From contig NMRA01000015.1 in assembly GCA_002633005.1 (NCBI GenBank), positions 1,174,218-1,238,217 on the forward strand: a stretch of 64,000 nt of DNA. The letters are read 5' to 3'. Position numbers and translations under genes: made by a program. The DNA comes from Phoronis australis. Its lineage: Eukaryota; Animalia; Phoronida. The notes under the pieces were generated by a model. It was not told the DNA's origin, ran no database searches, and was given only the letters and a program-made list of their open reading frames with translations. Of this stretch, positions 7,421 through 33,003 are shown piece after piece (position 1 is the stretch's first letter; each line of letters starts with the position of its first letter).

Positions 7421-7503
7421 TCACTGTGGTGAAGTGGTTACAGCTGGAGTAGTCGGTGATGGGTTAGGTTTGTCGCCAGTCCCTACACTGGTGGCGATCC
7501 ACA
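7421..7503 (-). CDS. VAMP: VAMP terminal exon B: short T/P/S-rich luminal tail ([27 protein letters not shown])
   Basis: ttgccatttcag|TGTGG acceptor in phase 1; begins V-W like terminal exon A; open to TGA at 7423-7421. Confidence 0.8.
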
Positions 7504-31500: not shown

Positions 31501-33003
31501 GCATTTTGTTCAGTTTCCCAGTTTGGCTTAAGATCCACACGCGCCAACTTGTAGTCCCAGAAGCTTGAAAAAGTTGGTGAAGAAACATTACTAAAAATTT
31601 CTCAGTCAAGGGAACATTTTTATTTTTTCTGTATCCATTTCCAACAGTACACGAAAATCGGAACAAAACTTTCACCTGAACACACACATGTTGCAACACA
31701 ACATACTTATAGTTGTGCAACTGACTTATGCAGTCACGCACAATGTCTGTTACCGAAGCAGTTACAAGTAGCACGTCGTGACCAGAATCAAGAGAATCAA
31801 AATTGTCTACTTACATGGACAAGAAATCATTTATGGGTTTCCAAAAAAAACTGACAGTTCGCTATTCCTAGAACCCTAACCAGCCAGCTAACTGTGAGAA
31901 GACAAACATCAGAACTGATACAGGTAAAAAACATTGTAATAAACATCATTCTCCAGCTTTTGCAACACAAAAAAGTCTGTCATCAACTTGAAAATAGTAC
32001 GCTTGTGTCACACGCACATACCACAAGCTAAACTTTCTGCATCAACATTCGGTAGATGATAACTTCACTGAAGCTATATCTGCTCCCGAATTCGGTTTTC
32101 TCATGTGTGAAATCAGTTCTGATAATTTGTTGTAACATGTGTGGAAACCTTGTGGAAGTAGAACACCTAACAGGCAAACAGGCATATGATCAATCCACAA
32201 ACTAACCGCAGAACTGAAGAATGGCAATTTTTAGCACTGATAAATAATATGGTTTACTCAAGTAATTGTGTAGTTTTTGATGATACTAATTTTTTATTAG
32301 ATTTTATTTGATCAGTTTTCACCAATACCAGTCCAATGTTGCATATTTATAGTTCATAAGGCTTCACATCAAGGCTATTAAGATCTAGGCACTTCAACCA
32401 CTCTGGTGGAGCCCACCCAGAAGCCAGACTAGCAGGGGCTACTTGTTGAGGTCAAGCTCAGTGCACAAAAAGTCATGAAATGACAAGACAACCCCACTTG
32501 CAGAGCCTCGTCTAAAGCAATAACTAACTGCCAGTTCTTTTGCAGCCCTGAAATCACCTTATGGAATAAATTGAGACCCATTTCATAACAGTAAGGGTCT
32601 AAACCAAAAGTTGATTTTTTTGACGGCAGGCAGGTTCATCTGCTCCATTCACTAGCAGTTGCATTGACTACCAGTACCAGGCAGCCACTGTCCAATGATG
32701 GTTCATATGCTACCTTCCTCCTGGTCAGCGGATGCAATTCTCGCGAATTACTTAGTTACTAAAACATAACACGGCCAATAATAAACACAGTTTGGAATAT
32801 ACCACCTATATACAGAAGGTATGAGTAACTCCGAGACAGTGAATTTACTTTTCTGATCGCTCGATCATCCGATCGATCGAAATTGTGGTGACTGAAGGTT
32901 TGACGTACATTCTGAAATAATACAAAATGTACTTAAGAACAGTTTCAAAGTACGACCGAAGCAAACGATCTAATTAATCATCACAAAACTTTCATACTCA
33001 CAT
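7421..33003 (-). CDS. VAMP: Synaptobrevin / vesicle-associated membrane protein (VAMP1/2/3-type R-SNARE), whole gene span with alternative exons
   Basis: Spliced exons give ...[68 protein letters not shown], nearly identical to canonical synaptobrevin. The split start codon (AT|G) and 52-nt TM exon match vertebrate VAMP gene structure as I recall it. Confidence 0.97.
10184..10389 (-). CDS. VAMP: VAMP terminal exon A: long P/G/Q-rich luminal tail ([15 protein letters not shown]...[18 protein letters not shown])
   Basis: cattcag|TGTGG acceptor in phase 1, in frame with every TM exon; matches ORF 10184..10390; GC-rich coding-like island. Confidence 0.85.
10797..10958. repeat. 52-bp tandem repeat, ~3 copies
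   Basis: Unit ACACTTAAGTATAGCTAGTATGAAGACTACAATATTGTCATGAAGCTTGATT. Confidence 0.92.
10971..13676 (+). mobile_element. Non-autonomous P-element-superfamily DNA transposon (~2.7 kb) in a VAMP intron
   Basis: Imperfect ~33-bp TIRs (CAAGGAGcGTAgtAGTATAGGAGAGTTCACTtC versus the reverse complement at ~13644-13676). 7-bp TSD TTGATAC at 10964-10970 and 13677-13683. Internal THAP remnant. Confidence 0.88.
11080..11930 (+). pseudogene. Decayed THAP-domain transposase 5' end (exon 11080-11177; second exon from 11761 with frameshifts)
   Basis: [66 protein letters not shown] carries the C2CH THAP signature (CxxxxC, FP, W, LCxxHF, AVP). No catalytic domain ORF seen. Confidence 0.8.
14720..14771 (-). CDS. 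VAMP: VAMP transmembrane exon variant 3 ([17 protein letters not shown])
   Basis: tttcag|ATG...GCTG|gtaagt, 52 nt, phase 0-1. Confidence 0.88.
15830..15881 (-). CDS. VAMP: VAMP transmembrane exon variant 2 ([17 protein letters not shown])
   Basis: ttacag|ATG...ATCG|gtaagt, 52 nt, phase 0-1; closest to the canonical MMIILGV. Confidence 0.9.
16470..16521 (-). CDS. VAMP: VAMP transmembrane exon variant 1 ([17 protein letters not shown])
   Basis: tttcag|AGC...GGTG|gtaagt, 52 nt, phase 0-1. Confidence 0.85.
16735..16810. mobile_element. Miniature hairpin element, same family as 46957-47030
   Basis: TTTGAGAACCAGTT-tatccacagaataacaggaata-AACTGGTTCTCGAA. Confidence 0.6.
19554..19633 (-). CDS. VAMP: VAMP SNARE C-terminal exon, variant B ([27 protein letters not shown]), duplicate of variant A
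   Basis: ttcttgttcccaatag|GC...AAG|gtccaa. Same 80-nt length and phase as A, 14/27 aa identical, no stops. Donor is weak. Confidence 0.8.
20046..20125 (-). CDS. VAMP: VAMP SNARE C-terminal exon, variant A ([27 protein letters not shown])
   Basis: tctag|AT...AAG|gtagc, 80 nt, phase 1-0, canonical sequence. Confidence 0.95.
20632..20710 (-). CDS. VAMP: VAMP exon: SNARE N-terminal half with zero-layer Arg ([26 protein letters not shown])
   Basis: gacag|GTG...GCAG|gtaatg, 79 nt, canonical sequence. Confidence 0.97.
21586..21685 (-). CDS. VAMP: VAMP exon: Pro/Gly-rich N-terminus and start of SNARE motif ([33 protein letters not shown])
   Basis: ttacag|G...GAG|gtaaag, 100 nt, conserved [11 protein letters not shown]. 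Confidence 0.95.
23369..23434 (-). CDS. VAMP: VAMP optional 66-nt N-terminal cassette exon (M)[22 protein letters not shown]
   Basis: ttcag|GTCTGCT...CCCCTT|gtaagt; phase 2-2, so frame-neutral; MSA start typical of synaptobrevins. Confidence 0.8.
26447..26602. repeat. ~33-bp degenerate tandem repeat, ~4 copies
   Basis: Unit CATTCAGGTAAAGTTGAGCAGAGACTCACTGAT. Confidence 0.75.
26669..27069. mobile_element. MITE, PIF/Harbinger-like, CTG TSD
   Basis: ~40-bp imperfect TIR GGCCCGGTCTCcAATC..TACTCGAAACG(g)AACTCGAAA; CTG at 26666-68 and 27070-72; internal ACTCGAA/TTCGAGT motifs. Confidence 0.8.
31815..31816 (-). CDS. VAMP: VAMP candidate alternative first exon 1B (AT of the split ATG)
   Basis: Minus strand ttgtccAT|gtaagt: consensus donor with the same AT| geometry as 1A. 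Confidence 0.4.
33002..33003 (-). CDS. VAMP: VAMP first exon 1A, coding part (AT of the split ATG)
   Basis: Minus strand ctaaaaaAT|gtgagt next to the shared promoter region; both candidate downstream exons begin with the G that completes ATG. Confidence 0.75.

Follow-up and report, generated by a model that had tools for sequence, protein, structure and literature searches.

SNAP-25 makes its a and b forms from a tandem duplication of exon 5, two mutually exclusive exons of equal length within the SNARE motif whose choice is regulated by stage or tissue, and Dscam1 carries serial clusters of duplicated alternative exons, with dozens of exons per cluster and one cluster for the membrane anchor, which are selected through docking-selector pairing. 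Among the vesicle SNAREs (v-SNAREs), C-terminal splice variants of VAMP1, whose alternative extreme C-termini tune targeting, are described beside the regulated splicing of SNAP-25 in the accessible part of PMC3123573. In this study, a synaptobrevin (brevin) gene of the phoronid Phoronis australis was investigated in a window of 64,000 nucleotides (nt), the whole stretch analysed (assembly GCA_002633005.1, contig NMRA01000015.1, positions 1,174,218 to 1,238,217); the gene is on the minus strand, between about 33092 and a point below 5614 in window positions. Like SNAP-25 it holds tandem duplicated exons within the SNARE motif; unlike SNAP-25 it is an R-SNARE with three serial clusters, which extend to the membrane anchor and the luminal tail. 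We observed that its exon set is expressed, selected and mutually exclusive, and that, judging from the sequences compared, its pair of anchor exons is not peculiar to the Phoronis genome and resembles the difference between vertebrate VAMP1/2 and VAMP3.

The protein has a short N-terminus with no longin domain, a single C-terminal anchor and, as in the brevin (VAMP1/2/3) group, the zero-layer Arg in its SNARE motif. Exon 4 and the two alternative 80-nt exons for the C-terminal half of the motif (C1 and C2) each match the Pfam Synaptobrevin family PF00957, and both C exons close with a basic Trp-Trp juxtamembrane stretch; by identity to known brevins, its partners would be a syntaxin and SNAP-25, and its role would lie in vesicle fusion. 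These exons are accompanied by three 52-nt anchor exons (T1, T2 and T3), an optional 66-nt N-terminal exon (N66) and the tail exons L1, M and L2 (Table 1). Within clusters, the duplicated exons are homologous, tandem and equal in length and phase. A preliminary description of this DNA had taken them for real parts of a single brevin gene, and this was borne out, as each has an AG acceptor, a matching phase and spliced reads, and every variant splices to the same exons 3, 4 and L2. All 24 exon combinations that it had put on paper translate open, giving 131-194 residues. Both of its terminal tail exons, L1 (10389) and L2 (7503), exist; L1 is internal and not terminal, because it splices on to L2 (37 reads in run X3), and a third tail, M, had been overlooked, the inclusion of which raises the paper count to 36. 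The stop of L1 (10186-10184) lies 11 nt ahead of its donor and that of M (7804-7802) 1 nt ahead; the gene thus differs from VAMP1, the variants of which involve no duplicated anchor or SNARE exon, in having stop-bearing tail cassettes before a shared last exon. Two possible first exons had also been proposed: transcripts start near 33092, where many molecules end in all three runs, and the second site, probably that at 31816, was without a joint at the threshold of 3 reads.

RNA evidence came from three raw-read runs of the same species label (X1, X2 and X3, about one fifth of each) and a contig set (X4). All four were mapped to 5500-24000 and the three runs to 14500-33500, with a joint threshold of 3 reads; all 12 joints are listed for the latter region and 15 of 28 for the former, and most exon reads carry no listed mismatch. 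In the order X1/X2/X3, exon 1-exon 3 was crossed by 102/86/364 reads, exon 1-N66 and N66-exon 3 by 0/0/3 each, exon 3-exon 4 by 93/73/336, exon 4-C1 by 74/104/248 and exon 4-C2 by 0/1/7. Onward joints were C1-T3 (50/52/167), C2-T3 (4/0/4), C1-T2 (0/2/35) and C1-T1 (0/2/12), and, among the joints listed downstream, T3-L2 (47/64/192), T2-L1 (0/0/29), L1-L2 (0/0/37), T3-M (5/7/0) and M-L2 (6/4/0), M therefore having 12 reads in and 10 out. The duplicated exons join shared flanking exons and never their own twin at 3 or more reads, to which decay may contribute: among the 12 joints of 14500-33500 there was none of C1-C2, of one T exon to another, of the second first exon, or of C2 to T1 or T2, the last expected only about once at these depths. 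Use of one exon per cluster, as the preliminary description had it, is thus seen in the reads, and it was also correct that double inclusion shifts the frame and that T1+T2+T3 meets TAA in T3.

When C1 was used for a protein search, the brevins retrieved came from molluscs, nemerteans, annelids, a bryozoan and flatworms; many were isoforms X1-X9 of one RefSeq locus, and the closest named matches were spiralians. Two anchor types follow an identical C-half in 9 of the 14 spiralian genera compared, namely Aplysia, Biomphalaria, Physella, Haliotis, Liolophura, Magallana, Ostrea, Mercenaria and Ruditapes; the last two are labelled 'other' by pattern, yet start with Met-Met and have Gly at position 6, and are counted among the nine. 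In Lineus, a tenth genus, the second anchor occurs only as a frameshifted double inclusion, Watersipora shows two types only if P0113 is included, and Tubulanus, Dreissena and Lymnaea show one. The two types are called here MM (Met-Met, Gly at VAMP2 position 100 and a small residue at 103-104) and MW. At the DNA level, locus L074 has tandem 52-nt exons, MM then MW, and the transcripts L007, L013 and L014 exchange exactly the 52-nt block or the tail, the MW anchor being paired with both tails. Two anchors at one locus were also found in Rhipicephalus and Uloborus. Such spiralian and chelicerate isoform sets in RefSeq and UniRef (Aplysia X1/X2, Biomphalaria X1-X6, Haliotis, Rhipicephalus X1-X11) share with the Phoronis gene the two anchors, the optional N-terminal exon found in most relatives, several tails, long or short, and the exon order and phases; they differ in being automatic models, which may join exons never phased, and in that no third anchor or second C-half exon was present among the named isoforms fetched. 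The double-inclusion models of Physella, Lineus and Magallana run MM then MW, matching T2 then T3. It had been claimed that productive use must be mutually exclusive; the reading frame alone permits two anchors, because these models retain the SNARE motif and the first anchor, and in the Phoronis gene too two anchors followed by L2 would place the stop in the last exon. As a side observation, several oyster, Lineus and tick models (P0069, P0132-P0136, P0078 and P0225) skip all anchor exons and would give soluble brevins; no anchor-skipping joint is listed for the Phoronis gene.

With reference to the numbering established for VAMP2, position 100 is Ile in 29 of 30 distinct MW anchors and Gly in 30 of the 41 others. 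A class profile trained on 10 mollusc pairs, with the diagnostic Trp position left out, was correct in 20 of 20 leave-one-genus-out assignments and placed T1 and T2 with MM and T3 with MW; VAMP2 of PDB entry 2kog is also MM. The brain transcriptome study PMC4342343 (Fig. S7) shows the MM type in the sequences of Tritonia, Melibe, Aplysia, Lymnaea, Drosophila, C. elegans and human, and the MW type in Nematostella, whose tail is rich in Ser/Thr and resembles that of T3-L2. The vertebrate-like loci compared have the same 80-nt and 52-nt exon sizes and one 52-nt anchor exon each, MW in L053 and MM in L055, L058 and L059, this being judged over 0.8-9.9 kb downstream (9.9 kb in L055, 5.2 kb in L058 and 1.3 kb in L053). 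Rotifers offer another arrangement, since in Adineta ricciae (P0263) and at L056, L060, L064 and L067 an MW form with a divergent C-half stands beside an MM form, as in the alternative exons of Phoronis, but as two whole tandem genes.

Each vertebrate paralogue would thus carry a single class, MW in VAMP3 and MM with Gly100 in VAMP1/2, in separate genes with one anchor exon each, whereas an unduplicated gene makes both forms in Phoronis and the nine spiralian genera, all of them protostomes. The preliminary description had seen this locus as a substitute for paralogue expansion; the exon pair is common to many spiralians, and because VAMP3 has one class and VAMP1/2 the other, it is likely that paralogues replaced splicing, which is the reverse polarity. 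The simplest reading would be that an ancestral exon pair, presumably older than the protostome-deuterostome split, was later shared out among duplicate genes. We lean, by a little more than even judgement, towards a bilaterian ancestor with a single synaptobrevin gene whose mutually exclusive anchor exons supplied both its neuronal and its general v-SNAREs (in some lineages together with a second C-half with Ser at layer +7), and from which VAMP1/2 and VAMP3 arose by reciprocal exon loss after genome duplication, rotifers having re-split the forms by tandem duplication; the Phoronis gene, with three exons each for anchor and tail and two for the SNARE C-half, would then, as part of that same judgement, be the most elaborate survivor among the loci compared.

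Several points count against such a partition. The 15 named vertebrate VAMP3 proteins, all scored MW (a bird VAMP2-like protein was scored MM), had been retrieved with an MW query; leaving out positions 2 and 6 together lowers the T3 score to only +1.3; the second anchors of ticks, a spider and Priapulus score near zero; the two members of the Candidula training pair are unlike in the C-half as well and may come from separate genes; and no named invertebrate-deuterostome brevin locus was present among the protein search matches. An alternative, which we consider unlikely though deserving of attention, is that protostomes do have this splicing, and have long had it, while the resemblance between VAMP3 and T3 and between VAMP1/2 and T2 reflects convergence, or retention of a single ancestral anchor followed by change in the paralogues, with no partition at all. 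The segment is short and of low complexity, and 17 hydrophobic anchor residues could converge; Nematostella is already MW, so VAMP3 could inherit this class without an exon pair; the ecdysozoan second anchors do not score MM; and no deuterostome gene with both exons occurs among the loci compared. However, the MM type, with its combination of residues at three sites, would have to arise twice, VAMP2 and the mollusc MM exons agree closely, and the 52-nt exon size is common to the MW and MM vertebrate-like loci.

Exon choice in the Phoronis gene is skewed and coupled, and is not one of 24 free combinations. C1-T3 took 50/54, 52/56 and 167/218 of the joints into anchor exons in X1, X2 and X3, respectively (77-93%), C2 took 8/434 reads (2-3%), T1 inclusion was 0-6%, and N66 was used in 3/367 reads of X3 (<1%). 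Among the joints listed, T2 was paired with L1, and T3 with L2 or M; the read balance of X3, with 35 reads into T2, 29 from T2 to L1 and 37 out of L1, is in keeping with this coupling. The expectation that exon choice depends on the sample was upheld, as T2 was almost confined to X3 and T1+T2 made up 47/214 of the C1 joints in X3 vs 4/106 in X1+X2, while M usage ran in the opposite direction, in X1 and X2 and not in X3 (Fisher p ~1e-5 for both contrasts and 8e-6 for T1+T2, values which are optimistic in that mates and duplicates were counted and reads are not independent). The routes seen were the dominant C1-T3-L2, C1-T3-M, C1-T2-L1, C1-T1 with an unseen partner, C2-T3 and, rarely, N66. The 24 proteins (2x2x3x2) are therefore a paper count, of which some five C-terminal routes find support in the joints, at very unequal levels; the read mapping that had been suggested as a check confirmed that several exons per cluster are used, but most combinations were not seen as joints.

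That each cluster is chosen independently, Dscam-style, to give about 24 cell-type-specific v-SNAREs in place of paralogues, is on these data improbable. It would fit the fact that all the paper forms translate and every exon is spliced, that in relatives one anchor meets several tails, and that whole-animal or mixed samples would mask rare cell types. Nevertheless, one route dominates and T2 is tied to L1, and though the gene shares with Dscam1 serial duplicated-exon clusters, one of them for the membrane anchor, its clusters hold only two or three exons and no docking-selector pairing beyond chance was found (5 of up to 50 comparisons gave p <0.1, the best being 0.049 uncorrected). Some findings nonetheless caution against skewed and mutually exclusive choice as stated here: in relatives, anchors and tails are joined in more varied ways than here, T3-L1, T2-L2 and the downstream partner of T1 are bounded and not counted given the 15 of 28 joints listed, and the missing double-inclusion reads could reflect decay and the 3-read threshold.

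Homology among the duplicated exons is evident within the window, where tblastn gave E values of 3e-10 for C1/C2, 4e-7 for T1/T2 and 5e-4 for T1/T3; scans of the window found no further anchor-like exons, no further exon homologues and no second exon 3 or 4, a match at 44852 being set aside as intronic sequence of the neighbouring gene. Of the 78 coding bases compared between C1 and C2, 34 are different (11, 7 and 16 at first, second and third positions); 14 of 26 residues are nonetheless the same, as are 8 of the 9 layers 0 to +8, counted in register from the zero-layer Arg; C2 retains layers 0 to +6 and +8, with Ala replaced by Ser at +7. Under neutral simulation, such conservation without a stop arose in 4 of 100,000 trials for C1/C2 (4e-5) and in 6 of 100,000 for T1/T2 (6e-5), and both single-nucleotide polymorphisms (SNPs) in C2, among 40 of the 225 SNP rows listed, are synonymous.

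No orthologue of C2 was found in searches of protein collections (best 17/26 residues), and a search with P0116 in a protein-cluster atlas gave generic synaptobrevin clusters only. Two tandem 80-nt C-half exons, the canonical one first, occur in 2 of 80 loci, namely L079 and L080, and the second exons of these loci, the transcript L027 and C2 all carry Thr80-Ser81, where 69 of 72 distinct C-halves have Ala81. Apart from this, the variants of L079, L080 and L027 are no nearer to C2 than C1 is (13-14/26), so far as these sequences tell a common and a repeated origin would fit alike, and the second exon of L079, which matches the first at 70 of 80 bases, may be an independent recent copy. The C-half exons of L079 stand only 79 nt apart, and crowding might enforce exclusivity there. 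Read-through past the weak donor of C2 would encode a hydrophobic stretch, but use of C2 as a terminal exon carrying its own anchor was rejected as its main fate, since reads splice it to T3 and coverage immediately beyond it is no higher than in introns. It is also highly improbable that the minor exons C2, T1 and N66 are functionless, being tolerated leftovers or splicing noise. Their low inclusion, the weak C2 donor and the want of a close C2 match in protein collections agree with noise; the third-position bias, the intact frames and layers, the synonymous SNPs, the Thr80-Ser81 second exons elsewhere and the optional N-terminal exons of most relatives do not. An origin of the extra exons in an interleaved paralogue or through misassembly, which the preliminary description had named as a finding that would refute it, can practically be dismissed and is already contradicted by the joints to the shared exons 3, 4 and L2: the window holds no second exon 3 or 4, the copies are too divergent for haplotype duplication (44/80 and 21-31/52 bases), and nothing among the brevin exons favours it, the duplicated block at 54670-55565 lying elsewhere in the window.

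As regards mechanism, we consider it probable that each transcript takes one of two C-halves, one of three anchors and one of three tails, with C1-T3-L2 as default and a few minor sample-dependent forms, and that the choice of anchor switches the product between a VAMP3-like general and a VAMP1/2-like neuronal v-SNARE. Here, the distal T3 and the canonical C1 would be default choices, cell-type splicing factors may open the upstream anchors and L1 together, and T1 may be a later copy of T2. Steric exclusion between twin exons was ruled out because the gaps of 412, 588 and 1058 nt between them are too long. Counts of splicing-factor motifs gave no clear pattern. AG-free zones span 49-137 nt before N66, C2, T1, L1 and M vs 12-33 nt before exons 3, 4, C1, T2, T3 and L2, which is a hint only, and the donors of T1, T2 and T3 are all GTAAGT; an extra GT at 16473, 3 nt upstream of the donor used in T1, would remove one Gly and has no joint listed. 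Nonsense-mediated decay would remove C1+C2 products and anchor doubles running into L1. Under the 50-nt rule for such decay, the stops of L1 and M would escape it, because they lie 11 nt and 1 nt before their donors, and the tail cassettes may place them there so as to escape.

Functionally, the Gly100 anchor would be expected to alter fusion-pore behaviour, the Ser81 helix late zippering, and the tails sorting. In the accessible part of PMC5460238, Gly100 is a hinge whose loss impairs pore opening, and in that of PMC7239655, natural anchors swapped onto VAMP2 change pore kinetics with the same total release. In 7 of the 10 mollusc pairs, the MW anchor is richer in beta-branched residues than the MM anchor. 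Telling against a simple functional switch, T1, T2 and T3 have 4, 6 and 5 of 9 such residues, which gives no simple order, and the label 'neuronal' is one of comparison only.

Table 1. Exons of the Phoronis australis brevin gene in window positions, with the tandem C-half exons of two other loci.
Feature	Position	Strand	Description
Exon 1	33002..33092	-	5' untranslated region and first 2 bases of start codon; joins exon 3
Candidate second first exon (AT then GT donor)	31815..31816	-	Site in sequence; unsupported by joints
N66, optional 66-nt exon	23369..23434	-	22 codons, proline-rich N-terminus; rare
Exon 3, constitutive	21586..21685	-	N-terminal region and start of SNARE motif
Exon 4, constitutive	20632..20710	-	SNARE N-half with zero-layer Arg; PF00957 E 5e-7
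C1, major 80-nt exon	20046..20125	-	Canonical SNARE C-half and juxtamembrane stretch; PF00957 E 7e-8
C2, minor 80-nt exon	19554..19633	-	Alternative SNARE C-half; weak donor GTCCAA
T1, 52-nt anchor exon	16470..16521	-	MM class (Gly100); T2 duplicate; class score -22
T2, 52-nt anchor exon	15830..15881	-	MM class (Gly100), VAMP1/2-like; class score -21
T3, 52-nt anchor exon, default	14720..14771	-	MW class (Ile100), VAMP3-like; class score +6.7
L1, internal cassette exon	10173..10389	-	67-residue Pro/Gly/Gln-rich luminal tail
M, 24-nt cassette exon	7801..7824	-	Short basic tail
L2, common last exon	5614..7503	-	26-residue Thr/Pro-rich tail, stop 7423-7421; shared 3' untranslated region to at least 5614
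Tandem C-half exons	L079:1718-1956; L080:454-2130

The 3' untranslated region in L2 shows a sense-strand depth of about 75-330 over 5500-7350, where a repeat skipped at 5500-5613 cuts the reads. Within the intron from C2 to T1, the sense depth at 18304-18937 is 2-fold over neighbouring bins in X1 and X2 (5.3 and 3.5) and not in X3. The intron from T3 to L1 holds an element (10954-13693) with 48-nt inverted ends and a spliced plus-strand transcript at 11175-11759 (28/11/189 reads in X1/X2/X3, possibly from other copies); it has a weak THAP match (E 0.002, under the cutoff), and the copy here stops after 41 codons. A second element (26664-27074), with 36-nt inverted ends and many mismatched reads on both strands, is a multicopy repeat. 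Head-to-head with the brevin gene, about 150 nt from its start, a multi-EF-hand gene (Pfam EF-hand), which we take to be EFCAB6-like, extends on the plus strand over 33239-~55600, its reads ending at 33239-33253 and splicing from 33339. One of its EF-hand exons occurs twice, at 54670-54999 and 55236-55565, with identical translation and flanking N at 55185, probably as an assembly duplication. A gene for a ubiquitin C-terminal hydrolase (Pfam UCH E 2e-14), one long exon of which contains a 168-nt tandem repeat, occupies 59928-63443 of the minus strand, and a Pro/Gln/Tyr-rich coding-like exon of a neighbouring gene, with no Pfam match, lies on the plus strand at 1181-1537.

The anchor pair appears to be visible in public annotation yet undescribed. 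As the preliminary description had advised, mutually exclusive VAMP exons were sought in the literature; no description of them, or of a VAMP2/VAMP3 anchor split, was found in what is mostly open-access literature, to which older molluscan and Drosophila papers may add, and the accessible parts of PMC1794582, PMC9539872, PMC9816800 and bioRxiv 10.64898/2026.04.13.718258 are silent on mutually exclusive brevin exons. The Dscam-like reading with 24 proteins is overstated; of more interest are how old the anchor switch is and how it corresponds to VAMP1/2 vs VAMP3. Whether the v-SNARE anchor is a passive tether or a tuner of the fusion pore is still debated, according to the accessible parts of PMC5460238 and PMC7239655. 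In the switch kept across spiralians, nature exchanges no more than the 17 residues of the anchor, with or without Gly100, while the cytosolic domain stays identical; matched natural anchor pairs for pore-tuning tests already exist in Aplysia and in further molluscan models, and the second SNARE exon is an equivalent natural test of late zippering. If the vertebrate paralogues did come from these exons, the split between synaptobrevin and cellubrevin would predate the genes themselves.

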